From assembly GCA_964441955.1 (NCBI GenBank), contig CAYTWA010000004.1:82681-146680 (forward strand): a DNA stretch of 64,000 nucleotides, read 5' to 3'. This stretch comes from an uncultured Elusimicrobia bacterium (GTDB taxonomy: Bacteria > Elusimicrobiota > Elusimicrobia > 2-01-FULL-59-12). Below are positions 1,968 to 43,400 of the stretch, one piece after another. Numbering within the stretch: the stretch's first letter is position 1; every line of letters starts with the position of its first letter. The position numbers and the translations under genes were made by a program. A model generated the notes under the pieces. It ran no database searches. It was not told the DNA's origin and worked only from the letters and a program-made list of their open reading frames with translations.

Positions 1968-3541
1968 AAGCGCTTGGGTGTTTACTATTTTTAGCCGTAC
2001 CGCTTTTCGCCGCACGCGTCGAGATCCGCGAAGGGCAGTTCTATGTTGACCATTCGCTTTTTTATGTTCGCGGCGTAGGGTACTCGCCGCTTCGGCCGCA
2101 TCAAGCGCCGGGCGGGTCTTACACCGGCATTAATTTCGCGCTGATTGATAAAGATTTTGAACGCATCCGCGCCGCGCGCTTTAACACGCTTCGCACCTGG
2201 GAGCCGCTGTCGCGCGAGGAATTGGCGTTGGCTAAAAAACATGGGCTCATGGTGATCCAAGGGTTGCGTCTGGATGGGCGGCAGGATTTCGGCAAACCCG
2301 CCAACCGGGAAAATGCCCTCGCCCAAGCCCGAGTGGCGGCCGAAACCTCGAAAGAATTCGACAACGTATTGGGCTATTTGATCCTGTCAAAACCGCACCC
2401 ATCGGCTATCGTGGACTCCGGCGTCGAACCCACCCTTTCTTTTTTCCGCGACGTCAAAAAAGAGATCCAAACCATTGACCCGCGCCCCGTGTCCATGGAC
2501 AGCTGGCTGCCCGCGGCGTTTATGGACCACCGCGAATTCGATTTCGTCAGTTTCACGTCGTTTGATTTTTGGCCGCGTTCCATTCAAGAAAGCCTGACCT
2601 TTCCAGGAACTTTGCAGTGGCTTAAAAACCGCTTCGCCCCCGACCGTCCCTTTCTGGTGTCGGCCACAGGCGGCTATGCCGTCTCCGAAGCCTCACGAAC
2701 CGCCAACGGCGGCTGGGGCGGCTTAACCGAAGACGAACAAAGCAGCCGCAACCAAGCCATTTTGCGCCAGGCCGTGGAAGGCCATGCCTCAGGCAGTGTT
2801 TTGGTGTCTTGGATCGATTCCTGGGCCGCGGCGGGCGACCCGAATACGCATGACAACGACCCCTGGGAATGGACTGGCGTTCTGGGAATTGAAACCGACA
2901 GCAAGCGCGATAAAACCGGTGTGCCCCGGAAAATTTATGGCGATCTTACGCAGGCCAATGCGGCGGTAGTCTTAGAACCCAAAGACAACCATTTGTACGC
3001 CACCCAAGAACCGCTGCCCATCCGGGCCGTCTCCGCATTGGATGTGATGTCGGCCCGCTACAGCGTAAACGGGGGGGACTGGATGGCCTTAAACGGCTCG
3101 GCTGCAACCGGGTGGTACGGTTTTACCAAGCTTCCTAAAACCGCCAAACGCCGCCAACGCGTTTCGGTGCAGGTCATGGACAAAGACCAAACCGTCATCA
3201 CGCAGCGTGAAGTGTCTTTCGTGGCCGCCATGCTGCCTGAACGCGTGGCCCTTTTAACCGAACGTACCAAAACGGCCGCCGGTTTCTTTCAATTCACCGC
3301 GGATGTCAAAGACGGTCAAGGCCGCGCCTTAGCCAAACGCCCCGTGCAGTTCGGCTGCTTCTTTCCCATAAGCCTCAAAGAATCCAAAGGCACCGTCCTA
3401 ACCGACGCGAGCGGCCTCGCCCGATGGACCTGTGCGACCCTCCCCGCAAAAGATGACCGCTACATGTACATCGCCGCCGGCACTGACTCCCCGGATAAAA
3501 TCCGCACAGGCGATATGCGTATCTTTGAGCTAACCCCCTAA
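1964..3541 (+). CDS. Secreted hypothetical protein, possibly glycoside-hydrolase-like (TIM-barrel-like)
   Basis: Signal peptide MKALGCLLFLAVPLFAA. 525 aa. Motifs FYVRGVGYSP, NTLRTWEP and WIDSWAAAGDP are suggestive of a GH-like fold only. Confidence 0.4.
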   Translation: MKALGCLLFLAVPLFAARVEIREGQFYVDHSLFYVRGVGYSPLRPHQAPGGSYTGINFALIDKDFERIRAARFNTLRTWEPLSREELALAKKHGLMVIQGLRLDGRQDFGKPANRENALAQARVAAETSKEFDNVLGYLILSKPHPSAIVDSGVEPTLSFFRDVKKEIQTIDPRPVSMDSWLPAAFMDHREFDFVSFTSFDFWPRSIQESLTFPGTLQWLKNRFAPDRPFLVSATGGYAVSEASRTANGGWGGLTEDEQSSRNQAILRQAVEGHASGSVLVSWIDSWAAAGDPNTHDNDPWEWTGVLGIETDSKRDKTGVPRKIYGDLTQANAAVVLEPKDNHLYATQEPLPIRAVSALDVMSARYSVNGGDWMALNGSAATGWYGFTKLPKTAKRRQRVSVQVMDKDQTVITQREVSFVAAMLPERVALLTERTKTAAGFFQFTADVKDGQGRALAKRPVQFGCFFPISLKESKGTVLTDASGLARWTCATLPAKDDRYMYIAAGTDSPDKIRTGDMRIFELTP

Positions 3542-3559
3542 AACCTTTCAGACGGTTTT

Positions 3560-6410
3560 TAACAGGCGATGTGTTTGGCTTGCTTAAGCCTATTGAACGG
3601 TAGGCCCATTGCCGATCCCTTTGGTCGAAGGACATCTTTAAGGCCTGATCCATCTCGGGCAGAATAGGACTACGATGCTTGCCTTGCTCGATTTACGGCG
3701 TTCTCTCGCTGGCGTTCTAGCCGGCCTCTTATGTTGACCGTTGTCCACGAATTGGGCATCGTCTTTTGGCCCTCTTTCGCACTCGTGTATTCCTCGGACT
3801 TATAGTGAGCAAGCCCTCATAGCGGCCCTGGGCCAATTTCTTCGGCCATTTTCAAAAAACGGAATTCGCCTTCGGCAGCAAGCAAGCGCGGCAGGAACCC
3901 ATTTTGGAACACGCGCAACGTACGCCAACGAACCCGATTTTTCATTGCCGGATGGCCAAAGAGTCACTTGGGACGAGGCGCATAAATTAATCACGGAGGG
4001 TCTTATCCATGACCCCTCAACGCTCATTTTTGAATGGGCCGCTTCACAACTGGAGATCAAGCAGCCCTCGTCATTAACAGCGACGCAAACCAAGATACGG
4101 GACAAGCTCGAGCGCGCCTTAAAAGAACTCGACCTCGAACGCGATGTTCCGATTCGTATTGTCCTTTTGGACGGAAAGACTAAAACGCAACGCTTTCCAA
4201 CCTTGGGCGACTCCGTGTGGGCGTTATCCAATACCGCGGATGACGCTCATTATTTGGAAGCCGGCGCCATCGGACATGCCTACCCGTCGGTCTACATGAC
4301 CCGCGAGCTGCTCCGCGACATCTCGCACAAAACGCTCGCCGATCGGCTTAAGGAAGAAATCGGTCATGCGTTGGAGAAAGCGAATGGCGTCCGAAAGGAG
4401 GAACACTGGGAAGATGACCCGAGTCGTTCAAATCATCTCTCCGAGATGAGAGGAGACATCCAACAAGCGGAGCGGTACCGCGAGGGGATATTGGTGGAGT
4501 TGGGTCGCGAATCCCAAGCTCCTATCGTATTGTCCAACAGTGTGGAGCAGCACCTTCGCAATCTGCCCCATGAAGACCTTCAGGCGATCTTCGCGCGACG
4601 ATTGAACCTACGGTTTGAGGCCTATCGGCAACTCTTTTTATCGCTCTGGTCAACGAACCCGATCGCAGCGTTTGAATACCTTGGGGCCGGAGTTCTAACC
4701 GATCAAGATGTCGTTGGCTCGATTCGCGAGTTGAGGGTTGTGCAAGTCCCAGACTGGATGAAAGCCTGCGTCCCTGCAGCTATTCTTAAGGGACGTTTCA
4801 TGGTTCAATATCGCTACGCCAAATCACCAACAATACGAATCGAGTGGGCCTATTTTCCCGATTTAAATCAATGGTTACCGGTATCGGCTGTCACGGTCCA
4901 AAACGATAAGCCCGTCTCAGAGAGAAGGCGAATTCGCAGCGTTTTTGTCATGCGAGATGGTTTTCCGGTTTTTCTGAAGTTTTTTCTAACAGGATTAACG
5001 CAAAAGACTTGGCCGAAATTAGCGGCCGCGGGAAATGAATTCCGTATTTATGGCCAAACACCTGCCTCGGGAGCCGTTTCATTGGTTTCGTCATCGCAAG
5101 TTTCGAATGAGAGCAATATGGAAGCACGAACGGCGGGGGTATATGAATTTGCACGCAACCTACTGGAACTCTACGGCGCCACAATCGACTCCGAAGGGTT
5201 CGCCCATCGACTCGATTGGGAAGGTACCGGAGAAGGCGTGCTTTTTATGCATGCGGTAAGTCGCAGCGCCAACGAGCCAGACAAAATCCTGGCAGCCGTC
5301 ATCATGAGGAACCAGTCACTTCTGGAATCGTTATCTACAAAATTTGAAACCTACTGGATAAAAGCAAGGCTACCCCAGGATCATTCCTCGACAGGTCCCT
5401 TTAGCATGAAACTCGGCACATTTAAGAATTTGGGCACGCACACAGCCTTGCCATTTGAAATCCATCTAAATCGCAAGTGGGCCGGTCGTCCAATAGAGAT
5501 CCAGTTGAGGCGAGGAATTCCAGTTTATATTCGAATATTGGATCAGGACACCGGATTTCCCCTGAAACAACATTTCCTGAAGCTTTTAGAGGTTCGAAGC
5601 CGAGATGGTGAAGTGCTTAAGACGATCAGGCCCTACTATTCCTCCACCTATTCCTCTGATTCCGAGCCCGTAAAAACCGCCCTAGCAATAGCTCAAGCAA
5701 GGGGTGGTTACGTCGTAGTGACAAATTTAAACCTTCGTAAAAGTCCCTATTACATTATTGCTCGAGCTTTTGAACAAACAACGAGAATCCCGCGTCGCAA
5801 CGTCCCAGATGATCAGCAAGCCAATGCTGCAGAAATTGTCTTTTCTCCCTCTATTATTTCGGGTCAGCCTGCGCTTAAATTAAACAAATTGCGTGTTGGC
5901 CGCTATAACCATGATGATCCTTTGTCTGCAGATCCGAGATACCTGGTAAACGTGACGGAATGCAAATTAGATATCCCAAGTCGGAAGATCCCTAATGACG
6001 CTATAAAATTATTTGTTGGTTTTCCTATGAATGTGCGCCGCGCGTTTTCGTCGAAAGTAAATCAAAGAAATTGGTCGATATTTATAAACGAATTGCTTTT
6101 CGAATGGCTTCAAACACCACAAGGTTCGACTTTTCTGCCCATTCAAAAAATGACAGAGATACCCAATCATGTGGGTTTTCGTTTCAGAATTCCTCGCGAA
6201 CTATATGCGGCTGTTGAAGATCGTCTTTTGGATTCGCCGTTGGGCGTTACCGATATCATCCGCACTCTGGTGAAAAATTATGTTAACCGACGGCAGCAAC
6301 CGGATCCCTCGTGCCTAACCGCTGCGTAGCACGAAACTTAACCCTGGGGACGCCCCCCCTTACTTTTTGTCCATGGGGGTTCCATAATGAGGCGCAAAAT
6401 GGAAACGATG
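3560..6410 (+). repeat. Segmental duplication copy 1 (upstream leader + paralog gene + downstream 32-bp palindromic element)
   Basis: Near-identical nucleotide blocks shared with 7750..10650, e.g. 3590..3730 vs 7770..7920 and 4010..4230 vs 8190..8410. Identical 32-mer GGTTCCATAATGAGGCGCAAAATGGAAACGAT at 6378..6409 and 10617..10648. Confidence 0.85.
3741..6329 (+). CDS. Large paralogous protein A (862 aa). Signal-peptide region interrupted by an in-frame TGA (3735..3737); possibly a pseudogene or N-terminally truncated
   Basis: Same frame as the upstream ATG 3675 (MLALLDLRRSLAGVLAGLLC*). Copy 2 has TTA where copy 1 has TGA. The first ~500 aa are highly similar to 7856..10510; the C-terminus has two RHH-like motifs. 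Confidence 0.6.
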   Translation: MSTNWASSFGPLSHSCIPRTYSEQALIAALGQFLRPFSKNGIRLRQQASAAGTHFGTRATYANEPDFSLPDGQRVTWDEAHKLITEGLIHDPSTLIFEWAASQLEIKQPSSLTATQTKIRDKLERALKELDLERDVPIRIVLLDGKTKTQRFPTLGDSVWALSNTADDAHYLEAGAIGHAYPSVYMTRELLRDISHKTLADRLKEEIGHALEKANGVRKEEHWEDDPSRSNHLSEMRGDIQQAERYREGILVELGRESQAPIVLSNSVEQHLRNLPHEDLQAIFARRLNLRFEAYRQLFLSLWSTNPIAAFEYLGAGVLTDQDVVGSIRELRVVQVPDWMKACVPAAILKGRFMVQYRYAKSPTIRIEWAYFPDLNQWLPVSAVTVQNDKPVSERRRIRSVFVMRDGFPVFLKFFLTGLTQKTWPKLAAAGNEFRIYGQTPASGAVSLVSSSQVSNESNMEARTAGVYEFARNLLELYGATIDSEGFAHRLDWEGTGEGVLFMHAVSRSANEPDKILAAVIMRNQSLLESLSTKFETYWIKARLPQDHSSTGPFSMKLGTFKNLGTHTALPFEIHLNRKWAGRPIEIQLRRGIPVYIRILDQDTGFPLKQHFLKLLEVRSRDGEVLKTIRPYYSSTYSSDSEPVKTALAIAQARGGYVVVTNLNLRKSPYYIIARAFEQTTRIPRRNVPDDQQANAAEIVFSPSIISGQPALKLNKLRVGRYNHDDPLSADPRYLVNVTECKLDIPSRKIPNDAIKLFVGFPMNVRRAFSSKVNQRNWSIFINELLFEWLQTPQGSTFLPIQKMTEIPNHVGFRFRIPRELYAAVEDRLLDSPLGVTDIIRTLVKNYVNRRQQPDPSCLTAA

Positions 6411-6474
6411 TCGAAAATGGTGCGACTAATCGATGGGATACCTCGTACCTTTATTTTCAGAAAGGGAAACGGGG

Positions 6475-7659
6475 TTAAGCTTCGTAAATGCGGGATACAT
6501 CTTGCCATGGGAGCGCGGTCACGTGGTCGGCTAAACGCATGGCGCGCGGCGCACGACAAATAATAAAAGCCTCCGTGGCTTGAGGATATTCCTTCAGAAA
6601 CGTGATGAGGTGCCGCGCATCCTGCAACGTCACAGACTCTGACCATTTCACTTCGACTGGGATGAGCTTCTCCGAATGACGCAACACCCAGTCGACCTCC
6701 GCTCCAGAGGTATCCTTCCAAAAATGAAGCGTGGTTCGAGGCAAAAAGCGCCGCGTGCTTCGAATCAGTTCCAGTCCTACCCACTGCTCGAACCAGTGAC
6801 CCCAGATCGAAAGCGCCGGTCGAACGCCTTCTTTCGCGGCGAAGCGACGTACACCCAAATCAAAAAAAAGATAACGCTGCGACCGAATGAGTTTTTTACG
6901 CGTGGCGCTTTGCGTCCAAGGCTCCACACGTTCAGTAATTAAGCAATCTTCCAAAATTTGGTAGTAGTCCATGATCGTGGAATGTGAAACACCGATGGTC
7001 TGGGATAATTTCTTAAAGTTCACGATGAGACCCGATTCGGCGGCCGCCAATTCCAAAAAGCGGCCAAAGGTGCCGACGTTTCTAACAATCGCTTCAGATC
7101 GAATTTCTTCCTCTAGGTAACTGGTCACGTAGGAATCCAACTCAGCGTCTTTTTGCGATTTCTCCGGCGTAAGCATGATCTGCGGAAGCGCTCCATAACG
7201 CAGGTGATCTTCGATGCGCGCGTGGGGGTATTCCGCGTGTGTCAGCGGATCCATTCGAAACGAAAGCACCCGTCCTGGGAGCAAATTGACCTGGCCGCGT
7301 TTTAGTTTTCGTGCCGACGAGCCGGTAAGAATAAATCGTGCTTTTTTGTTATCGATGAGATGCTGAACGACGTCCATGATCTGCGGAACTTTTTGGACTT
7401 CATCCAGAATCACGAGAGGGGGTTTGGCCTGTTTGCGCGAAGGTAATGCCGCAATTTCTCCTACAAGCGCTGAGGGGTTCATTTCGTACTTCTGTCGGAT
7501 TTTTGGCAAAAGAAACGACAACGAGAGATCGGCTGACAATGTCCCTAAAAAGGTGGACTTCCCTGTTTGACGAGGCCCTAGGAGTAGAACGCTTTTTCCC
7601 TTTGAGAGCGCTTCGTTTAAATAAGGGTCGATAGCTCGTTTGATTAACATCAGGATCAA
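6475..7659 (-). CDS. AAA+ ATPase (AAA_14 / DUF4143 family)
   Basis: Walker A GPRQTGKST and Walker B LVILDEVQ. C-terminal DUF4143-like region. 394 aa. Confidence 0.85.
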   Translation of the reverse strand: MILMLIKRAIDPYLNEALSKGKSVLLLGPRQTGKSTFLGTLSADLSLSFLLPKIRQKYEMNPSALVGEIAALPSRKQAKPPLVILDEVQKVPQIMDVVQHLIDNKKARFILTGSSARKLKRGQVNLLPGRVLSFRMDPLTHAEYPHARIEDHLRYGALPQIMLTPEKSQKDAELDSYVTSYLEEEIRSEAIVRNVGTFGRFLELAAAESGLIVNFKKLSQTIGVSHSTIMDYYQILEDCLITERVEPWTQSATRKKLIRSQRYLFFDLGVRRFAAKEGVRPALSIWGHWFEQWVGLELIRSTRRFLPRTTLHFWKDTSGAEVDWVLRHSEKLIPVEVKWSESVTLQDARHLITFLKEYPQATEAFIICRAPRAMRLADHVTALPWQDVSRIYEA

Positions 7660-7699
7660 TTTTCAAGGAAATTTGATCCTTTGTCAACAATATTCTATT

Positions 7700-7765
7700 G
7701 GTTATCGAGGTTCGAGGTCTTTAACGCGGTAGGTGGCGGCGGGGTCGTTGACGGTTGGCTCGCTT
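7700..7765 (-). pseudogene. 3'-terminal remnant of a membrane winged-helix regulator gene (...DPAATYRVKDLEPR*)
   Basis: About 30/36 nt identity to the 3' ends of genes 10703..11416 and 36745..37425. The minus-strand translation retains the DPAATY(G/R)VK motif but there is no upstream ORF. Confidence 0.35.
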
Positions 7766-10650
7766 GGGCCTATTGAACGGTAGGCACATTGCGCGGTGGC
7801 TTTGGTCGAAGGACATCTTTAAGGCCTGATCCATCTCGGGCAGAATAGGACTACGATGCTTGCCTTGCTCGATTTACGGCGTTCCCTCGCTGGCTTTCTA
7901 GCCGGCCTCTTATGTTTACCATTGTCCGTGAATGGGGCATCGTTTTTTGACCCTCTTTCTCACCCGCACATTCCTCCAATTTACAGTGAACAAGCTCTCG
8001 CCGCCGCCCTGGGTCAGTTTCTTCAGCCATTTTCAAAAAACGGAATTCGTCTCCGGCAGCAAGAAAGCGCGGCAGGAACCCATTTTGGAACACGCGCAAC
8101 GTACGCCAACGAAGCCGATTTATCGTTACCGGATGGTCAAAGAGTCACGTGGGACGAGACACATAAATTAATCACGGAGGGTCTTATCCATGACCCCTCA
8201 ACGCTCATTTTTGAATGGGCCGCTTCACAACTGGAGATCAAGCAGCCCTCGTCATTAACAGCGACGCAAACCAAGATACGGGACAAGCTCGAGCGCGCCT
8301 TAAAAGAACTCGACCTCGAACGCGATGTTCCGATTCGTATTGTCCTTTTGGACGGAAAGACTAAAACGCAACGCTTTCCAACCTTGGGCGATTCGGTGTG
8401 GGCGTTATCCAATACCGTGGACGACGCTCATTATTTGGAAGCCGGTGCTATCGGACATTCCTACCCGTCCGTTTACATGACCCGCGAGCTGCTCTGCGAC
8501 ATCGCGGACAAGACGCTCGCTGATCGGCTTCAAGAAGAAATCCGTCATGCGCTGGAGAAGGCGAATGGCGTCCGAAAGGCGGAACACTGGGAAGATGACC
8601 CGAATCGGTCAGAGCATCTCTTTACTTTAAGAGGAGACATCCAACAAGCTGAGCGGTACCGAAAGGGAATTTTGGAAGAGTTGGCTCGTCTATCCCAATC
8701 CCCTATCGTATTGTCCGACAGCGTGGAGCAGCAGATTCGCGATCTACCCTATCAAGACCTTCAGGCGATCTTCGCGCGACGCTTGAACCTACGGTTTGAG
8801 GACTATCGGCAACTCTTTTTATCGCTCTGGTCAACGAACCCGATCGCAGCGTTTGAATACCTTGGGGCCGGAGTTCTAACCGATCAAGATGTCGTTGGCT
8901 CGATTCGCGAGTTGCGAGACGTGCATGTTCCTTCCTGGATGAGAAACAACGTGCCTCCACCTATTCTCAAGGGGCGTTTCATGTTTCAATACCAACAGGC
9001 CAAATCACAGACAATCCGAATCGAGTGGGGTTATTTTCCCGATTTAAATCACTGGTTGCCTGTATCGGCTGCCACGGTCCAAAGCGATAAACTCATTACT
9101 ACGATAAATCAAATTCGCAGCGTTTTTGTCATGCGAGACGGTTCTCCGGTTTATCTAAAATATTTTCTAAGAGGCCTAACAAAAAAAGCTTGGTCCAAAT
9201 TGGCAGCCTCGGGGAACAATTACCGTATTTACGGTCAGGTATCGCCCTCGGGGACCGTTTCGCTCGTTACATCGCCGCGACCTGTGGCTGAGGGCAACAA
9301 GCAGGCAAGAGTGACTGGGGGATACATGTTCTCTCGCAACCCACTTGAACTCTATAGCGGTGAAATCGACCCTGAAGGGTTCGCCCACCGACTCGATTGG
9401 GAAGGTACGGGCGAAAGCGTGCCTTTTATGCATGCGATAAAGCGTGTCGTCAACCGGCCCGACCAAATCCTTGCGGCCGCGGTCACCCAGTGGGCCCAAC
9501 AGACGCTTGAGACTCTAACTGAAAAGCACGAGACCTTTTGGATAAGAACACGGCTACCATTAAAGGCCGTTTCGCAGCGTTCATCTATTTCCATGCAACT
9601 TGGGATCTTTAAGAGTTTTGGCATTGATTGGGGATTTCCGCTTGATATCAATGTCCATAATAAATGGGCAAATCATTCAATAGAAGTCAAAATTAAAAAT
9701 GGCTTTCCCGTTTGCATTCAGATTTTGCATTGCGATACGGGAAAAATGCTTGGTTTGTGGTTTTTTAAAATTTTAGAGGTCCGGGACCGCGAAGGAAAAG
9801 TGCTTGCCATGATAAGACCCTATAATTCCGATCTTCAGCCAGAAACGGAGGCTGTTAATATCGCCTCTAAATTGGCTCACGAACTTGGAGCTGAGGTCGT
9901 GGTAACCAATCTGGAACTTTATCGAGAACAAACACATTACAGGGCAGCGGCTTTGGGGCAGACGGCGAAGGTCGGGTTGGACCACGCCCAGTATCACAAG
10001 AAAGCCAAGGACGCAGAATTCGTTTTTGCTCCTATTCGTATAGCCAGACGTTTTGCGCTGAAGCCAATACGTCTGCGTGTCGGCCAATACAACCACCATG
10101 ACCCCCTCTCCAATAACAAAAGGGAACTGCTTGGCGTGACGGAATATCCGTTGGATTTTTCAGAACTTCCCCTTCCGTCCGATCTCATAACAAAAACTGT
10201 AAGATTTCCTGGCGCTCTATTAGATCGGTTTAGGGAAATAATGCCGGTGGGAAAAAGGATGTCGATTGTGATTAACACATTGCTTGCCCAATGGCTTGCA
10301 ACGTCACCTGGCGTGGCAATCAATAAATATGGGTCAACGCCATCGAATCAAAGGTCGACTAGTTTTAAAATTTCCCTCGCACTGCTTCGGGGGGTCGAAA
10401 ACCAAATTCAGGGCTTACCTTATTCCGTTGAAGTTATTATTCGCACGCTGGTGCAAAATTACGTTGACCAACATGGGCAATCCAATCGCGATTGCCTTAC
10501 AGCCTCCTAATCCGAACCTCGCAAGCGGCCTACGAAAATGGGGACGGTCCAAAAAAACGCTGACGTTACTTGTTTAGGACTGAGCGTCCCCATTTACTCT
10601 TGATTTATGACCCTATCGGTTCCATAATGAGGCGCAAAATGGAAACGATA
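7750..10650 (+). repeat. Segmental duplication copy 2
   Basis: See copy 1. Sequence identity is mosaic: perfect blocks alternate with diverged blocks. Confidence 0.85.
7856..10510 (+). CDS. Large paralogous protein B (884 aa), intact N-terminal signal peptide
   Basis: ATG start. Signal peptide MLALLDLRRSLAGFLAGLLCLPLSVNGA. Paralog of 3741..6329. C-terminal tandem RHH-like motifs (VRFPGALLDRFREIMPVGKRMSIVINTLLAQWL; FKISLALLRGVENQIQGLPYSVEVIIRTLVQNYV). Confidence 0.7.
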   Translation: MLALLDLRRSLAGFLAGLLCLPLSVNGASFFDPLSHPHIPPIYSEQALAAALGQFLQPFSKNGIRLRQQESAAGTHFGTRATYANEADLSLPDGQRVTWDETHKLITEGLIHDPSTLIFEWAASQLEIKQPSSLTATQTKIRDKLERALKELDLERDVPIRIVLLDGKTKTQRFPTLGDSVWALSNTVDDAHYLEAGAIGHSYPSVYMTRELLCDIADKTLADRLQEEIRHALEKANGVRKAEHWEDDPNRSEHLFTLRGDIQQAERYRKGILEELARLSQSPIVLSDSVEQQIRDLPYQDLQAIFARRLNLRFEDYRQLFLSLWSTNPIAAFEYLGAGVLTDQDVVGSIRELRDVHVPSWMRNNVPPPILKGRFMFQYQQAKSQTIRIEWGYFPDLNHWLPVSAATVQSDKLITTINQIRSVFVMRDGSPVYLKYFLRGLTKKAWSKLAASGNNYRIYGQVSPSGTVSLVTSPRPVAEGNKQARVTGGYMFSRNPLELYSGEIDPEGFAHRLDWEGTGESVPFMHAIKRVVNRPDQILAAAVTQWAQQTLETLTEKHETFWIRTRLPLKAVSQRSSISMQLGIFKSFGIDWGFPLDINVHNKWANHSIEVKIKNGFPVCIQILHCDTGKMLGLWFFKILEVRDREGKVLAMIRPYNSDLQPETEAVNIASKLAHELGAEVVVTNLELYREQTHYRAAALGQTAKVGLDHAQYHKKAKDAEFVFAPIRIARRFALKPIRLRVGQYNHHDPLSNNKRELLGVTEYPLDFSELPLPSDLITKTVRFPGALLDRFREIMPVGKRMSIVINTLLAQWLATSPGVAINKYGSTPSNQRSTSFKISLALLRGVENQIQGLPYSVEVIIRTLVQNYVDQHGQSNRDCLTAS

Positions 10651-10702
10651 AGGCGATTTTTAAAAACCCCTCTTCGATCCGCCCATGACTGGCTTTTGCA
10701 CC

Positions 10703-11416
10703 TTAAACCGAACCAACCCCTTTAACGCCGTAGGTAGCAGCGGGGTCGCTGGGGGAGGATCCACTGCGAACGAGCTCCCCTTCTTCTAACAATTCAGCCA
10801 GCAAGCGCGTCACGCTGCGGCGGGGAAGCGTTAAGGCTTCTCGAATCGTTTTGGGGGTTGAAGGGCCGTTTTGGCGCAGATAGGCGAGCACGTTTTCTCG
10901 TTCATCTCCGGAGGCGTTCCCGCGCGCTTTTCCACCCACGCGCTTGCGGTATTGGCGCAGGGCATAGGTGCCTAAAAAGAGGGCAATCACCTGCATGGTA
11001 ATCCGGGGAAGTTCGGGCGGCATGGGAATGGTGGGATCAGCAATTCGCCAGGTGACGGCCACCGCCCATAGAAGAAACCACGAGGTGATAAACGGCCCGC
11101 CTTTGCGCAGGCGCTCCGGCCAACCCTCGGGGTCCGGGTCCGCCGGGGCAATCGTTAACCGCTTGATCTCGGGGGCCCCCGCGTAGGCGCCCAGCACAAA
11201 GAGGTACATCTCCGCTAAAGGGTCCTGCGCTTTAAAGTTGCCGCGTGTAAGGATAAAGAGCAGGTTGTAAGCCAGCAAGTAAGCCGTCATTCCAAAGGCA
11301 AAAGGGCGCATGAAGAGGCTGCCGTCCTTCGGGGAGGGGACGCTAGGTTCGTGGGCTTCTGCGGGGTGCGCCATGCGGTGGACTATAGTATTTTTTGGCT
11401 CAGTTAACTGGCTCAC
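10703..11416 (-). CDS. Membrane-tethered winged-helix (MarR/PadR-like) regulator, paralog 1
   Basis: 3-4 predicted TM helices followed by a C-terminal wHTH (LAYLRQNGPSTPKTIREALTLPRRSVTRLLAELLEEGELVR). Conserved N-terminal FMRPF and C-terminal DPAATYGVKG shared with 36745..37425. True start may be an internal Met (11374 or 11311). Confidence 0.6.
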   Translation of the reverse strand: MSQLTEPKNTIVHRMAHPAEAHEPSVPSPKDGSLFMRPFAFGMTAYLLAYNLLFILTRGNFKAQDPLAEMYLFVLGAYAGAPEIKRLTIAPADPDPEGWPERLRKGGPFITSWFLLWAVAVTWRIADPTIPMPPELPRITMQVIALFLGTYALRQYRKRVGGKARGNASGDERENVLAYLRQNGPSTPKTIREALTLPRRSVTRLLAELLEEGELVRSGSSPSDPAATYGVKGVGSV

Positions 11417-11480
11417 TTAAATATCGACGAATGATAGAAACAGTGAGCCACTATGGCCCAGCATACTATAAATAGAATTA

Positions 11481-11498
11481 TATACCCATTCGGGTATA
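11481..11498. promoter_or_regulatory. Perfect palindrome TATACCCATTCGGGTATA (putative HipB operator 1)
   Basis: Read directly from the sequence. Lies in the AT-rich region upstream of hipB. Confidence 0.5.
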
Positions 11499-11550
11499 AA
11501 TCGATTAAAATAAATAATTTAGTCGCTTAAATTAAATATTATCAATTGAA

Positions 11551-11568
11551 TATACCCAATCGGGTATA
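11551..11568. promoter_or_regulatory. Perfect palindrome TATACCCAATCGGGTATA (putative HipB operator 2, overlapping a -10-like TATATAAT 13 nt before the hipB ATG)
   Basis: Second copy 70 bp downstream of the first. This arrangement is typical of autoregulated TA promoters. Confidence 0.5.
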
Positions 11569-11580
11569 TAATGATGCCGC

Positions 11581-11790
11581 ATGAATCCCATTGCTAAATT
11601 TATCAAGGTCCAAAGAAATCTATCTCGGTTGACACAAGTCCAACTCGCCACAAAAGCGGGTGTTGGTTTGCGTTTTATCCGCGATCTAGAACAGGGCAAA
11701 GAATCACTCCGGTCAGATATCTTAAACAAACTCCTTCGCTTTTTTGGGAAACAGCTAGGGCCCGTTGATTTGCCGAGAGATGAAGAATGA
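11581..11790 (+). CDS. hipB: HipB-like XRE-family HTH antitoxin (69 aa)
   Basis: HTH QVQLATKAGVGLRFIRDLEQGK. Stop overlaps the next start (ATGA). Confidence 0.75.
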   Translation: MNPIAKFIKVQRNLSRLTQVQLATKAGVGLRFIRDLEQGKESLRSDILNKLLRFFGKQLGPVDLPRDEE

Positions 11791-12116
11791 AAGCCGGCGT
11801 GTTTTATGGCGATATTTCTGCTGGAATTCTAACGAAGCATGACGGCTCCTATACCTTCTGTTATGAAAAGGCGTATTTAGACCGTCCGGACGCCCAACCC
11901 ATCAGTTTTTCACTTCCGCTTCAAATAGAGCCCTTTGAATGGAAAGAGTTTCCACCTTTCTTCGATGGTTTACTGCCTGAGGGATGGTTGTTGGAGTTGA
12001 GTGCTTCGAAATTCAAAATCGACCCCAAAGATAAGTTTTCAATGTTGTTGGCGATGGGTCATGATGGGATTGGTGCCGTAAGCGTTCAGGCATTGGAGGG
12101 CCCGGGTGCCGGCTAA
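11787..12116 (+). CDS. hipS: HipS-like protein (HipA N-terminal subdomain as a separate 109-aa polypeptide)
   Basis: HipA_N motifs FFDGLLPEGW and GHDGIGAVSV. Overlaps the downstream kinase gene. Confidence 0.7.
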   Translation: MKAGVFYGDISAGILTKHDGSYTFCYEKAYLDRPDAQPISFSLPLQIEPFEWKEFPPFFDGLLPEGWLLELSASKFKIDPKDKFSMLLAMGHDGIGAVSVQALEGPGAG

Positions 12117-13035
12117 CTGTCTGAGCTGTCATCGTCCGATACAGGGAGAAGCCTACCATTCCGCTTGTTTAATGAACCTTTTCGGAGTCGCCCGAGCGCC
12201 GAAGGTGTCCTTTGCGATTCCCGACATCCCCATCAAACTACGAGAGCCCACAGAAAAGATTTCACCCATTTCGGGAGTGCAGATCAAAACCTTTGTGCGA
12301 CTATACCCGCAGACACTTTCGTTGGATATCGCGCCTTCAGGGGGGACACACATTTTAAAACCCGATCCGCCTCAATACCCCGAACTATCGACCCTTGAAA
12401 ATGTATGCATGGCGATGGCAGCTGAATTGGAAATGGACGTTCCGCCGCACGGGTTATTCCCCATGCCAAACGGGATGCTTTGTTACGTGGTACGTCGATT
12501 TGACCGAGAGGCCGATGGCCGAAAAATTTCAAAAGAAGACTTGGCCCAAATCATCGGGGTTCCCTCAGACTCCAAATACCGAAGCTCGCTCGAATCGATC
12601 GGAAAGGCCATCCGGAAACTGGCCACGACGCCAGGGCTTGAGGCGTTGCGTTTTTGGGAACGGGTTTTGTTTTGCTACATGATCGGCAATGGGGACATGC
12701 ATCTTAAAAATTGGTCGTTGTTGAAAACATCGGACGGGCGCGTCCAATTATCACCCTGCTACGACTTCGTTTCTTCGGAAGTTTACTTTCGTGATGAGGA
12801 ATCCGCTCTCACCTTAAACGGCAAGAAGGCTCGCTTAAAACGGCTGGATTTCGATATCCTGGCCGCCTATCTCAAGATTGACCCCAAGGCGGCCTCCAAG
12901 GTGATTCAGATGTTTGAAGCGAAACATCCTGCCCTCATCGAAATGGTTATGGGTTCGCCTTTAACGTTGGACAAGAAAGAGAAGTTACTCGAAACGATGC
13001 AAGCTCGCCTGGCTGTTTTGTCCAAATCATCGTGA
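12106..13035 (+). CDS. hipT: HipT-like Ser/Thr kinase toxin (HipA C-terminal kinase core, 309 aa)
   Basis: Gly-rich loop SPISGVQIK at residues ~53-61. Catalytic motif GNGDMHLKNWS and DFVSS. GTG start. Stop overlaps the mfd start. Confidence 0.75.
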   Translation: MPANCLSCHRPIQGEAYHSACLMNLFGVARAPKVSFAIPDIPIKLREPTEKISPISGVQIKTFVRLYPQTLSLDIAPSGGTHILKPDPPQYPELSTLENVCMAMAAELEMDVPPHGLFPMPNGMLCYVVRRFDREADGRKISKEDLAQIIGVPSDSKYRSSLESIGKAIRKLATTPGLEALRFWERVLFCYMIGNGDMHLKNWSLLKTSDGRVQLSPCYDFVSSEVYFRDEESALTLNGKKARLKRLDFDILAAYLKIDPKAASKVIQMFEAKHPALIEMVMGSPLTLDKKEKLLETMQARLAVLSKSS

Positions 13036-16219: not shown

Positions 16220-16765
16220 TTGCTTTTGAGGCACCAGGTCCCAGACGACAAACCCCTCGTCATCTTGGATGAAATTCATAAATACGCCAAGTGGCGCGGG
16301 TTGATTAAAGGACTGCACGATACTCGAAAATCCAAGCAGCGTTTTCTGGTCTCGGGTTCAGCGCGCCTGGACTACTACCGTAAGGGAGGAGATTCGCTTC
16401 AGGGTCGCTACCATTATTACCGGCTACATCCGTTTAGTCTTCGGGAGTTAGACCCTTGCGCATCTTCGTCATCGCTTGCATCGCTTCTGCGGTTCGGTGG
16501 ATTTCCCGTACCAGTCTTGGCGGGAAGCGACCGAGACCACCGCCGCTGGCAAAAAGAACATACGGAACGAATCCTGAACGAAGACCTAAGAGATCTCGAG
16601 CGAGTGCGCGAAATTTCCCTTATCGAACTTTCGATACCTTGGTGCCAGGCACCCGATTCCCCATTCCAATTCGCTCCGCCGAATGGTTTGTTTCATGCGT
16701 GTCTAAAAAATTTGACACCATTTTCAACGAGTTCTGCGGCCAATGGATTCCGTGACCATAAATAA
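16220..16765 (+). pseudogene. 5'-truncated, C-terminally aberrant fragment of an AAA_14/DUF4143 ATPase (paralog of 6475..7659)
   Basis: Begins at the Walker-B region LVILDEIHKY with no Walker A. Only 87 nt separate it from the mfd stop. The C-terminal half diverges from the intact copy. Confidence 0.5.
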
Positions 16766-36744: not shown

Positions 36745-37425
36745 TTACGGTTTTAAGCCGTAGGTGGCAGAGGGGTCAAAGGGGCCGCCGTGGCGGACGA
36801 GGGCGCCGGATTGAACTAGATTTTTTAGGAGGCGCGCTACGCTGCGCCGGGGAATTCCGGTGGCGTCTGAAAGGGCTTTAGGTGTTTGCGAGTTTTGGCG
36901 GCGGAGTTCTTCCATCAAGCGTGCCGCATCCGCATCAAGCAGAATGTTTGCCGCACCTGTGGCCGCTTCGGACCGGGGTTGTCTCGCCCGGCGGTATTGG
37001 CGAAGGGTGTAACTCCCAAAGAAAACCCCCACCACTTTGATGGCTGTTTCCTTAAGTTCGGGCGGCATAGAGCAGGCAGGGTCGGCCATACGCCAAATGC
37101 CGGCCGCCAGCAGCATTCCAAGCCACAAGGTGACGAGCGGACCGCCTTTGCGAATTTGCTCTTGCCAGCCGATTTCATCGGAATCCTTGCGTTTTAGCAG
37201 CTGAGTAATTTCGGCCCCGCCGGCATAAGCCACCAAGATCAACAAATACACATCGCTCCAGCGGTCGGGTGAACTGATGGCGCCATGCGTGGCCATGAAC
37301 AAAATGTTTTGCATGGTCAAAAATACGGTTCCAACCAACACAAAGGGCCGCATAAACGAACTCACGTGACTATTCGGAAGGGGGGTGGATGTTTCCATGA
37401 CCATGCCAACTATACAATAACCCAT
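36745..37425 (-). CDS. Membrane-tethered winged-helix regulator, paralog 2
   Basis: Same architecture as 10703..11416 (FMRPF..., TM helices, wHTH, ...DPSATYGLKP). Divergent from the large + strand cluster. Confidence 0.6.
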   Translation of the reverse strand: MGYCIVGMVMETSTPLPNSHVSSFMRPFVLVGTVFLTMQNILFMATHGAISSPDRWSDVYLLILVAYAGGAEITQLLKRKDSDEIGWQEQIRKGGPLVTLWLGMLLAAGIWRMADPACSMPPELKETAIKVVGVFFGSYTLRQYRRARQPRSEAATGAANILLDADAARLMEELRRQNSQTPKALSDATGIPRRSVARLLKNLVQSGALVRHGGPFDPSATYGLKP

Positions 37426-40454: not shown

Positions 40455-43400
40455 ATGCGAAAAACACCCTTTCGGTCGTGGTTGTCCGCAGTTCTTGTCA
40501 GCGCCCTGCTGATCGATCCCCATTGGGCCCAGGCGATGAGGCCTCCGGCGCGCCTCGCTGCGCCCTTGGTCATGGCTCCCTTCGAACAATGCGCGCTGAA
40601 GGAGCGTGCCTTTTATTTCAACGCTTTTGATCACCTGTTCGAGCAGTGGCCGCGGCTTCGCTCCAAAGTGTTTCGTCGTGTCTCCCCCATATCTCGTCTC
40701 GAGCGCACCTGGCCATGGGTTTTGGCGGCGGCTGCGACGCTTTATGGGCTCAAAACGGCCTTTTATCCAGACAGTTTTGTTTCCGATATTGGGACAAATT
40801 CCGTTGGGCTTGCGAGTTTTATTGGCTTCTTGGCCATCAAAGTAGAAACGCTTTTGCTCTTTCGTCATCCAAAAATCCCCGTGTCGCTCCTCTACGAAAA
40901 TCCGGAATCTGATGAATTTCATGCCATGAGCCGGCGCCTTGAAACCGAAGTTAAAGAGGCTCTTGAGCTGGTCAAAATTCAACATCCTGAGATGGAAGAC
41001 GACGAAGCCATAGCGATGTCGGTGGGGATGAGAAATGTTCTGGAAGATTCTCGAGTCATTTATCGATCCACATTTTCTGAAGGGGAAGAAGATAGCTACC
41101 CTGCAATTTTTTGGATCAACCCGCCGGAGGGTCTCGAATTTTTTATGGAGGGGGGGCGTGCCTCCTGTCTGCACTTTGATCCCAATGCAGGGGTCGCCTA
41201 CCTGTCGCTACCGCTTTACCAGGCACTTGCCTCGACACCTATCAACCCCAAAACATACGTTGAGGTGATATCGCAGTACTTGTTCTTGCGTATGAGCGGA
41301 GATTCCCACGAAGGAGCTCTCCAGTTACTAGATCCAGCACTACTAGCCCAGATCGACCAATTCCTTGAAAATCGCTTGGTCGCGCAATTAGAGGCTGAGC
41401 GCCAAGCAAAAGAAGCTGAAGACGTTAAGCTCAGCGCGCAAGCGAAGAGGGAACTTGTGAAGCTTGTCAAAGCGCATGGGGTGGAATTGATGTCGTCGAA
41501 CCAAGACGAATGGCTGGGTCAAGACTGGTTTCTACAAAAAGAGAAACGAGATCCCGCGGGCTGGGTCGATCGCTTGCAGAGAAGAGTGATAGCGTTAAGT
41601 GAAACGGCGGAGGGAACCCCGCTCTCCTACGAAGAAGCATTGAAAGAGTGGGTTCCGCAATACAGTTTCTATCCCCATGCCACAGGCAAAACGTATTTTG
41701 GACATCTCATCTCGGAGGGATATCACCTCATCAATAAACGTGCGGGAAAACGACTCACGCTGGGAAACACGGTCATTACCAAGGGCGAGTTTGCCGACAT
41801 CGGGATTACTCCGGCCAAATGGGAAAAAGCAAAAGAATCGTATGAAACCAAAATGCGCGAAGCCAATGAGGTGTGGGAGTATTGGGCGCGACCTCTTTCT
41901 ATTTTGAGAGATATCGATACCGTCAAAGTCCTCCTGGAGAAAGCCGGCTTGAGTGACGAAGATCAAAAACAGTTGTTGGGTTTTGTTCTTGTGGCCGCGG
42001 AGCAAACTTGGGCCTCGGATTTCGATGTGTCGCAACTGCTGCTACGTGCGGGCGAAAAACCTTTTTCGTTAAGTGAAGAAGCGTTAGCCCGGATTATTGA
42101 AGCCGCCGATCGACTCGCTTTGGACGCCGAGTTAACCTCTCTAGCACAAAAACGTCTTCTCTCGCCTGCCGCTCGCATGCGCGGGCCGGTGGGGCTTGCT
42201 TCTGAAAAAGCGAAAGAAGGACCTTCGGGTAATCCCCTGTTTTGGAACCGCTGGGCGGAGGCCTACACCAAAATCTTCAAACAGTTTGCCGCCTATCCCA
42301 TCAAAATCTTTGCGGTGGGAAGAGCACTGGTGTGGATGGAGCGCCAAGACCTTCCTTATGCACTCAAAGCCAGCCAAATCAAGACGGTGCTTGCCGGTGG
42401 TTCAGGTCCCATGATTCTTCTCCATGCGCTGGCTGAAATTAGAGAGCTCCTGGTTCGTTTAGGGATTGCGGTCGCACGGATGCGAGTCATCAGTTTGGAT
42501 TTCGCGTTCAATATGTTGGTCCATGGGAAAAACGCTGCTTCACGGGTTCCAATCGCGAGCGACGCTGTAGCGGCCAATTTGACTGAGATTCTGCCGTTTA
42601 AAGATGGGTCGATCGATTTTTATGAGTCGGGAATATTCGGAACAATCGGTGATGACGTCAACAGAGAAGGGGTATCCAAAAAAATCCATTTTCTCCTCGA
42701 AGCCAATCGCGTTCTCCATGGACCAGAACAGAAAGACTCTGACCCCAAGCGAGAAGGGCGCGGGGGGTTACTCGTTTTGACCGTAAAAAACAAACCGATT
42801 CCCGAGAACCTTCAAGAGGTGCTTGCGCAATTTGGATTTGAAATCGTTTCAGAAAAGCGTCCTCGTGTCTCCCTTTTAGGCGGACTGCTTTGCAAACTCA
42901 CACACGGAGAGCATGCACGGGATAAAGCGTCGCATTTGAAAACGCAAGTGGGAGGGGCCTCGATGCTTTTTGCCGTCAAGCGACGGACGCTTTCGCCAAC
43001 CGAGATCCAACGTCTTCGCGCATCATCCACAGAACCGCATATCGTTGCGCTACGAGTGGCCCTGACTTATGATGATTCGCTTAAGACCCAAGAAAAGCAT
43101 CACCCGACACCTCGGCATTGGAACGGTCATGCGCGCCGGCCTGGCCTCGAGCGGCTTGAGTGGAAAGACGTGCAACCCGAAGAGCTTCTTCCGCCAATCA
43201 TTAAGCGCACCGACATCCTCATTCGGCATCCGGATTTCATTAAGGCGTTCGATCATTTGGAAGTCTGTCGTTTCCACAATTTGCTAAGTGTCGATCACGA
43301 CCAGCGGTTCGATGATTTTCAACGCGGCTGGGATAACCCGGCGATCGTGGAGTTTGAAGTCGAAGAAGTGGAATGGATTTTAAAGCGCGTGCAGGAGCGC

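Follow-up and report, generated by a model that had tools for sequence, protein, structure and literature searches.

Mosaic divergence between tandem paralogues of an orphan gene in an uncultured Elusimicrobia bacterium, consistent with duplication followed by partial gene conversion

Partial concerted evolution by gene conversion has been described for babA and babB of Helicobacter pylori (PMC3444412, PMC4552749), cases of long-lasting concerted evolution have been catalogued in prokaryotes (PMC6053082), and gene conversion has also been reported in antigen families of Mycobacterium tuberculosis (PMC13061034). In the lpl cluster of tandem paralogues in Staphylococcus aureus, the unit of evolution does not coincide with the open reading frame (ORF) (PMC2568036). 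We analysed a stretch of 64,000 nucleotides (nt) from an uncultured Elusimicrobia bacterium (contig CAYTWA010000004.1, assembly GCA_964441955.1), referred to here as the window, which carries two long paralogous genes in tandem, designated copy 1 and copy 2. A preliminary description of this locus had reported two segments of ~2.9 kb flanking an AAA ATPase gene, with mosaic identity suggestive of gene conversion. Our results indicate that the pair probably arose by tandem duplication of ~3 kb, followed by conversion between the copies.

Tandem copies and the mosaic between them

The direct repeats comprised units 3575-6409 and 7755-10649, each containing a leader, one long ORF and a 3' element, and both copies were on the same strand with a start-to-start distance of 4181 nt. 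Repeat search and blastn aligned 3575-5298 to 7755-9479 at 86.3 % identity over 1732 nt. The encoded proteins displayed 64 % amino acid (aa) identity and were collinear down to the final residue. The repeats, the collinear ORFs and this protein identity confirmed the paralogy of the two segments, whose coordinates had originally been given accurately to within ~20 nt.

Segmentation of the copy alignment by penalised likelihood yielded six segments in four divergence classes. In copy 1 coordinates, these displayed identities of 88.9 % (3613-3980), 100 % (3981-4210), 85.6 % (4211-4572), 98.8 % (4573-4733), 75.2 % (4734-5298) and 54.3 % (5299-6326). The longest perfect tract (3981-4210, plus strand) was 230 nt in length and identical to 8162-8391, whilst a second, near-perfect tract of 161 nt (4573-4733, plus strand) contained only two mismatches and included an exact run of 112 nt (4622-4733, identical to 8803-8914). 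Against perfect runs of 230, 112 and 85 nt, the maximum in 5000 permutations of the same differences was 104 nt. The diverged 3' part of copy 1 (5299-6326, plus strand) aligned to 9480-10507 at 54 % nucleotide identity with saturated synonymous divergence (dS), so that the 3' halves of the ORFs are indeed much more diverged than the segments at 75.2-100 % identity.

The same heterogeneity was evident at silent sites. When the comparison was restricted to codons for identical amino acids, the longest run without a silent change was 77 codons (p<1e-4), a length reached in 0 of 10000 permutations, whose maxima were 42 codons for the whole gene and 67 codons for the 5' half alone. A second silent run of 42 codons had p=0.011 within the 5' half. 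Sliding dS along the codon alignment was ~0 at 3975-4200 and 4575-4690 and 0.2-0.5 in the remainder of the 5' half, rose to ~0.9 at 4935-5170, and exceeded 1 (saturated) from ~5235. The transition/transversion ratio of 1.41 for the 5' half is in keeping with young divergence, and that of 0.79 for the 3' half with saturation. Both copies retained the family motifs FLKxxEVR, VVVTNL and RVGxYNHxDPL in the diverged 3' part, and they therefore represent two isoforms whose N-terminal parts are nearly the same and whose C-terminal parts differ.

Alignment, segmentation and sliding dS thus each confirmed the alternating blocks of the preliminary description, with divergence that was far from uniform and dS ranging from 0 to saturation within one gene pair. 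The block that it gave as an example of perfect identity, 4010-4230, lies mostly within the 230-nt run but overshoots it by 20 nt. Blocks of 100 % identity alternate with blocks of 86 % identity inside a single domain. Since selection on the protein cannot silence synonymous sites blockwise, recombination between the copies is the reasonable cause of the identical tracts, and the 230-nt perfect tract can be read as a recent conversion tract. The persistence of the heterogeneity at synonymous sites supports the original suggestion of gene conversion.

The two copies differ at their 5' ends in a way that affects the predicted products. In copy 2, a leader (7755-7855, plus strand) precedes an ORF of 884 aa that begins at ATG (7856-10510, plus strand; P0001). 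The copy 1 leader (3575-3674, plus strand) marks where the duplicated unit starts on the left; it precedes an ATG at 3675 that is the homologue of the copy 2 start, and an 85-nt perfect tract (3619-3703) begins in this leader and spans both a Shine-Dalgarno-like AGGA and the ATG. The frame opened at 3675 is closed by TGA at 3735-3737, 32 nt past the perfect tract, where a single-base difference gives TTA in copy 2. What remains of the signal-peptide-like N-terminal coding sequence in copy 1 (3675-3737, plus strand) reads MLALLDLRRSLAGVLAGLLC followed by this stop. The copy 1 ORF of 862 aa runs from a TTG located 3 nt after the TGA (3741-6329, plus strand), whilst the public annotation of copy 1 (P0002) comprises 794 aa and fits a start at TTG 3945. 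Recoding of the TGA was ruled out, as TGA is an ordinary stop in this genome and terminates 6 of 27 long ORFs; copy 1 is therefore makeable only from a downstream start, without the signal-peptide-like segment. Both copies are full length with a common leader and start. Their 3' untranslated regions (UTRs) measure 29 and 88 nt and could not be aligned. We found no sigma-70-like promoter in the leader common to both copies, and as RNA the leaders and 3' elements folded no better than shuffled sequences. Rfam gave no family match in the window or over the ATPase leaders described below, and no tRNA was found in the window.

The duplication junction, the downstream relic and the ATPase genes

Additional traces of the locus history were preserved at the edges of the repeat units. 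Directly downstream of copy 2 lies a minus-strand gene (10703-11416) for a membrane protein with a C-terminal MarR-like winged helix-turn-helix (wHTH), and the 3' end of this gene was co-duplicated. A remnant of a paralogue of this gene, comprising the last 16 codons and the stop, was present at 7702-7752 on the minus strand (NDPAATYRVKDLEPR versus SDPAATYGVKGVGSV, each followed by the stop). It is in frame with the C-terminus of the 10703-11416 protein, and its stop is at the same offset. Within the window, 7719-7750 and 10720-10751 displayed 87.5 % identity (E 4e-6); over its full length the remnant was identical at 34/51 positions, with a core of 82 %, and is too short for dating the duplication. 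A 3' piece of the wHTH gene abutting the left end of copy 2 is the expected product of a tandem duplication that extended from 3575 to 16 codons into this gene, and there is moderate support for a tandem-duplication junction at ~7752/7755.

The wHTH family is represented in the window by two intact paralogues and the 51-nt remnant, the second intact paralogue being located at 36745-37425 (minus strand; 42 % identity). Its members combine hydrophobic membrane-like segments with the MarR-like winged helix and a C-terminal DP(A/S)ATYG(V/L)K. Between the wHTH gene and the neighbouring hipA genes, which are divergently oriented, the intergenic region contains a 96-nt imperfect palindrome (11477-11572) with two TATACCCnnnnGGGTATA boxes, which looks like a pair of operators. 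HipA itself is split in overlapping ORFs, a Couple_hipA N-terminal part (11787-12116, plus strand) and a HipA_C part (12106-13035, plus strand), the latter overlapping the start of mfd at 13032.

The element shared by the 3' ends of both repeat units contained an exact 32-nt repeat (6378-6409, identical to 10618-10649) inside a 51-nt match of 84 %. A 25-nt core of this repeat, TTCCATAATGAGGCGCAAAATGGAA (6380-6404), had six exact matches in the metagenome collection. In five of the six, the core was located directly before, and ran into, a gene for an ATPase with AAA_14 and DUF4143 domains; the core therefore corresponds to a 5' UTR, in which GAGG represents the ribosome-binding site, plus the start codon after it. 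The ATPases behind the core were 381-391 aa where complete (190 aa on the short contig L085) and their products read MRRK-ME(I/L/M/A)I(D/T)R...FFL(F/L)GPRGTGKST, although gene callers mostly place the start of leader-bearing ATPases at the second ATG (387 aa). Among themselves, these ATPases, whose contigs were chosen by exact match to the core, displayed 57-80 % identity at the protein level and 51-70 % at the DNA level (first 300 nt), with unrelated sequence in the upstream 60 nt. Six further family members sampled without selection for the core displayed the same leader architecture with some variation: TTGAC as a -35 element, 17 nt, a TAAAAT-like -10 element, GGAA, ~7 nt, TTCCAT, (T/A)(T/A)TGAG(G/A)C(G/A)CA(A/T)(A/T) and ATGGAA. 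Leader examples were taken from contigs L085-L096, for example L087 (1230-1330) and L092 (310-410).

From these comparisons, the shared element is the relic of one plus-strand DUF4143 ATPase gene once present downstream of the ancestral gene. After copy 1, the relic comprises the 5' UTR, the start codon and four codons of the lost gene (6359-6409, plus strand). After copy 2, it comprises the leader, the start and ~11 codons (10599-10671, plus strand) reading METIRRFLKTP, similar to MEMIDRYFKPP in L089. Both relics have ACG as the third codon, which was not seen in other family members. The frames that open at the relics run for 58 and 32 codons and are unrelated past codon 7, and no ATPase gene follows the shared element at either copy in the window. 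The shared downstream element of the preliminary description is thus real but not specific to the repeats, as it belongs to a subfamily of DUF4143 ATPases that also occurs in unrelated contigs from metagenomes.

This ATPase subfamily with a conserved promoter and 5' UTR comprises at least 8000 clusters at E<=1e-30, with proteins typically of 387 aa. Both the GGAA(A/T) further upstream and the ATGGAA at the start codon are complementary to the central TTCCAT of its leader, and the leader looks like an operator or a start-codon-sequestering hairpin. In contig L090 (3040-3200), the full promoter and leader are present but the gene body is gone right after ATGGAA; given this contig and the window, loss of the body with retention of the leader may recur. 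The conserved ATPase promoter and 5' UTR, surviving loss of the gene body, may be the more useful by-product of our analysis.

A different member of the same broad family is located between the two copies. DUF4143 is listed in the PD-(D/E)XK superfamily (PMC3424549), and AAA_14/DUF4143 ATPases correspond to COG1373. The gene at 6475-7659 (minus strand) encodes an intact ATPase of 394 aa from the listed TTG, in which both Pfam domains scored above their gathering cut-offs (AAA_14, 80.6 bits against 27; DUF4143, 104.9 bits against 28.1), which bears out the opposite-strand ATPase originally described. It also matched the PADLOC candidate PDC-S01 (E 2e-62). A promoter-like site, TTGACA-17-GAAAAT (7659-7687, minus strand), is overlapped by the inverted repeat GGATCAA-N12-TTGATCC. 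The protein was only 35-40 % identical to the subfamily represented by the downstream relics, and therefore belongs to a different subfamily. The interval 6410-7701 in copy 1 comprises 1.3 kb containing this ATPase gene, whereas its counterpart in copy 2 is ~50 nt, from the 32-nt element to the wHTH stop; the ATPase gene therefore lies outside the duplicated unit, and insertion of its segment at a later time is the simplest explanation. Neither terminal repeats nor a target duplication flanked the segment beyond chance. Across 2500-12500 we found no transposase, terminal inverted repeats or target-site duplication, which speaks against a composite transposon or duplication by an insertion sequence (IS). 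Transposase domains, long inverted repeats and flanking direct repeats were all absent, in agreement with the earlier report of no transposase or IS ends. The phrase 'cassettes flanking an ATPase' therefore holds for the positions, but not for a functional or mobile module, and a plain tandem duplication is indicated.

No such ATPase neighboured the distant homologues of the duplicated gene. The intercopy gene and the relics after the copies are members of the AAA_14/DUF4143 family, and are neighbours of the duplicated gene rather than components of it. A truncated AAA_14 fragment of 181 aa without the DUF4143 part (16220-16765, plus strand), directly after mfd, is a second decayed ATPase of this type in the same 13 kb. 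Genes of the DUF4143 ATPase family evidently come and go at this locus.

The window is a piece of bacterial chromosome near replication genes, including mfd, surA (twice), pdxA, ksgA, dnaA, dnaN, gyrB and gyrA. Among species representatives, the nearest GyrB sequences were from an unclassified metagenome-assembled genome (MAG) at 64 %, an Endomicrobium MAG at 62 % and an Elusimicrobia MAG at 61 % identity. G+C content at third codon positions (GC3) was 0.50 in both copies, 0.55 in the ATPase gene and 0.64-0.68 in the housekeeping genes, and the 3' halves of both copies had a G+C content of 0.45-0.47. Elsewhere in the window, an ORF of 4593 aa (40455-54236, plus strand) had no Pfam match at E<=1e-4 and is followed by genes for TPR and HEAT-repeat proteins.

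The duplicated protein

Neither copy matched a family in Pfam, NCBIfam, PADLOC or PHROGs. Exhaustive phmmer searching of 1.84 billion cluster representatives identified the paralogue and 16 distant matches, whilst word-indexed protein searches (5.8 billion clusters), run both with one sequence and with the alignment of the family, returned only P0001 and P0002. No relative of the duplicated gene was recovered from the genome, metagenome and viral contig collections, an exact look-up of P0001 yielded no recorded contig, and an orthologous locus was found in no collection searched. The search for further copies likewise turned up no third copy, and the distant homologues were each single copy, in unrelated genomic neighbourhoods.

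Copy 2 comprises a signal-peptide-like N-terminus, a module A (approximately aa 70-290), a helical region and a beta-rich module B extending to approximately aa 770. It begins MLALLDLRRSLAGFLAGLLCLPLSVNG/A. By their sequence, the N-termini of copy 2 and of eight distant homologues look like signal peptides, and the protein would accordingly be a candidate for export. Module A, which begins with the sharply conserved motif GTHxGT[RK]xTY and also carries YxEAGAGG, S[VI]Y[LM]T[QR]E and EExxHA, is an undescribed domain. It also occurs within giant proteins (1540-3663 aa) whose other domains are of the methyltransferase, GNAT, HEAT, TPR or glycosyltransferase types; this module of ~200 aa was found in P0003, P0008, P0010, P0014 and P0018, and sequence reading identified ParB-like parts in P0008. 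Module B (approximately aa 290-770) recurs in proteins of 500-900 aa that have no Pfam domain and whose hydrophobic N-termini read as signal-peptide-like, and its beta-rich structure had no structural match. Across the family, conservation is strongest in module A and at the beginning of module B. Isolated C-terminal and module A pieces gave nothing meaningful in Pfam at E<=10, and a PDB sequence search with the family and module A profiles gave no match.

In the structure model, aa 777-873 of copy 2 adopt a predicted tandem ribbon-helix-helix (RHH)-like fold that is TraY-like, with two beta-alpha-alpha units arranged as a pseudo-dimer. Block-mean values of the predicted local distance difference test (pLDDT) in this region were mostly ~76-86, lower in the linker, from a shallow alignment. 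No RHH family in Pfam matched the C-terminus even at E<=10, and a single-sequence AlphaFold2 model (pLDDT 34) was of no use. The duplicated gene represents an almost unsampled protein family, whose architecture makes it a candidate for structural or functional work.

Alternative histories and comparison with known systems

Under the history we consider probable, a segment of ~3 kb would have been duplicated in tandem, comprising the promoter-leader, the gene for the large protein, the 5' end of an already dead gene for a DUF4143 ATPase and the final 16 codons of the convergent wHTH gene. Homologous recombination between the direct repeats, in the form of non-reciprocal gene conversion, would then have repeatedly overwritten parts of the 5' 1.7 kb, leaving nested tracts of different ages at 0-1 %, 11-14 % and 25 % divergence next to a saturated 3' kilobase, and copy 1 would have lost its signal-peptide-like start via the TGA. 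The order of these events, and conversion of the RecA type as their mechanism, are what we infer from the preserved traces.

Several observations weigh against this history. The 32-nt relic is identical, the left flank is 89 % identical and the core of the wHTH remnant is 82 % identical, yet the 3' halves of the ORFs are only 54 % identical; if the duplication is old and conversion was confined to the 5' part, the well-kept right flank needs constraint or another event. An assembler can also homogenise near-identical repeats, and the tracts may be slightly less perfect than they appear.

The main competitor, which we regard as possible but distinctly less likely, is a fairly young duplication (~11-14 % neutral divergence) in which the 3' kilobase and 3' UTR of one copy were replaced by a divergent foreign allele. 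The replaced block would be ~5299-6358 or 9480-10598, anchored by the conserved 5' half and the ATPase leader, and the perfect tracts would still be due to conversion. The divergent block is bounded on both sides by more similar DNA, with identity passing from <40 % to 84-100 % exactly at the relic, and the core of the wHTH remnant (82 %) and the left flank (89 %) are similarly well kept. The 25-nt core is unchanged before ATPases of 57-80 % protein identity in the exact-match contigs and is a possible anchor, and the low GC3 of both copies relative to the housekeeping genes (0.50 against 0.64-0.68) fits foreign ancestry. However, identity on the left side falls stepwise (99, 86, 75 and 54 %) without one sharp breakpoint, the equally low G+C content of the two 3' halves makes neither look more foreign, donor-like sequence was present in no collection searched, and the overall identity of the wHTH remnant (34/51) also suits an old duplication. 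The stepwise fall favours an old duplication, which together with repeated 5'-anchored conversion and some constraint on the 32-nt element fits the data, whereas the sharp right boundary and the perfect relic favour the younger duplication with a foreign 3' block. Replacement by a foreign allele could equally account for the extreme divergence of the 3' kilobase, whilst conversion covers the identical tracts. Whichever history applies, the perfect tracts reflect recent exchange between copy 1 and copy 2.

Beyond the origin of the pair, we consider it improbable that the locus is a functional two-state system for a new kind of secreted protein. In such a system, an exported copy 2 with a TraY-like DNA-binding tail would act as an effector on foreign or host DNA, and copy 1 would be kept cytoplasmic by its TGA. 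As this TGA lies 32 nt outside a conversion tract, it could be gained or lost by conversion, which would toggle between the states. Improbable too, and separate from this system, is the reading of the perfectly conserved 32-nt ATPase leader after each gene as a live regulatory or binding site rather than a relic.

Programmed variation, whereby an expressed and exported copy 2 would swap segments with a reservoir copy 1 that lacks the signal peptide, as in pilE/pilS or babA/babB, is more doubtful still. The N-terminus reads as signal-peptide-like, as do those of eight distant homologues, and the copy 1 stop falls within the signal segment 32 nt past a perfect tract. Against this, both copies are full length with the same leader and there are only two of them; moreover, the exchanged tracts are in the conserved part and the variable 3' halves are without any tract, such that recombination homogenises the copies.

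We attach similarly little weight to an assembly artefact, in which the assembler would have joined strain variants of one gene in tandem or expanded a repeat. The sequence is probably from a metagenome assembly, the public record being a contig of 216.5 kb and the nearest GyrB sequences being from MAGs, and a 230-nt exact repeat is longer than common k-mer sizes. Nevertheless, divergence between the copies is 14 % in one half and 46 % in the other, they have unlike ORF lengths, 3' UTRs and flanks, a unique 1.3-kb segment with an intact gene separates them, the junction holds a specific remnant of the downstream gene, and strain variants would not reach saturation-level difference in half a gene.

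The least credible alternative, that no recombination occurred and that the 5' half is under far stronger purifying selection on the protein, codon use or mRNA structure, is in line with the strong conservation of module A and the start of module B in the family but conflicts with silent sites that are identical across 77 consecutive codons and saturated elsewhere in the gene pair, and with the alternation of 100 % and 86 % blocks within one domain, as protein constraint spares synonymous sites.

Three further system types were considered and rejected. Silent-cassette antigenic variation was excluded as both copies have a leader and start and the variable 3' halves are without a common tract. 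A diversity-generating retroelement was excluded as there is no adenine bias, the substitution spectrum between the copies being symmetric across bases, and no reverse transcriptase was present among the ORFs scanned (some small ORFs were unscanned). Polymorphic toxins of the Rhs and CDI (contact-dependent inhibition) types were excluded as the C-terminal halves align end to end and keep their motifs, no toxin or delivery domain was identified in Pfam or NCBIfam, and no immunity gene is located downstream, only the ATPase relic.

Gene conversion between bacterial paralogues is already well known, and the mechanism here adds nothing new. The locus nonetheless provides a clean and statistically supported case in which tandem paralogues have been partly homogenised, from a bacterial lineage that has hardly been sampled, with a history that is legible from small relics, namely a duplication junction and a dead gene start. 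Its value lies in the orphan protein architecture and the DUF4143 ATPase leader, whilst the phenomenon itself is ordinary.

Polymorphic toxin loci such as Rhs and CDI are characterized by a conserved N-terminal part, a variable C-terminal part, tandem arrangement and orphan C-terminal cassettes. The copies described here resemble them in having a conserved N-terminal and a variable C-terminal part and in standing in tandem, but differ in that the C-terminal halves are collinear homologues, with no demarcation motif, immunity ORF, or Rhs, haemagglutinin or toxin domain. TraY of the F plasmid (PDB 9f0x_E) is a single-chain tandem RHH protein to which the modelled C-terminus of the duplicated protein is similar; unlike in TraY, the predicted RHH-like fold ends a protein of 880 aa with a signal-peptide-like start, and has no RHH match in Pfam. 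As in the lpl cluster, the evolving unit differs from the ORF, here extending from the leader to the 3' end of the next gene, whereas there are only two copies, one genome was compared and an unrelated gene is located between the copies. The closest parallel is with cases of the babA/babB type, in which recombination between copies is the accepted cause: in both, two full-length paralogues in one genome, with products that look exported or surface-located, display tracts of identity alternating with diverged blocks. Here, in contrast, the copies are adjacent direct repeats, the identical tracts are confined to the 5' part, and the pair belongs to an uncharacterised protein family in an uncultured lineage.

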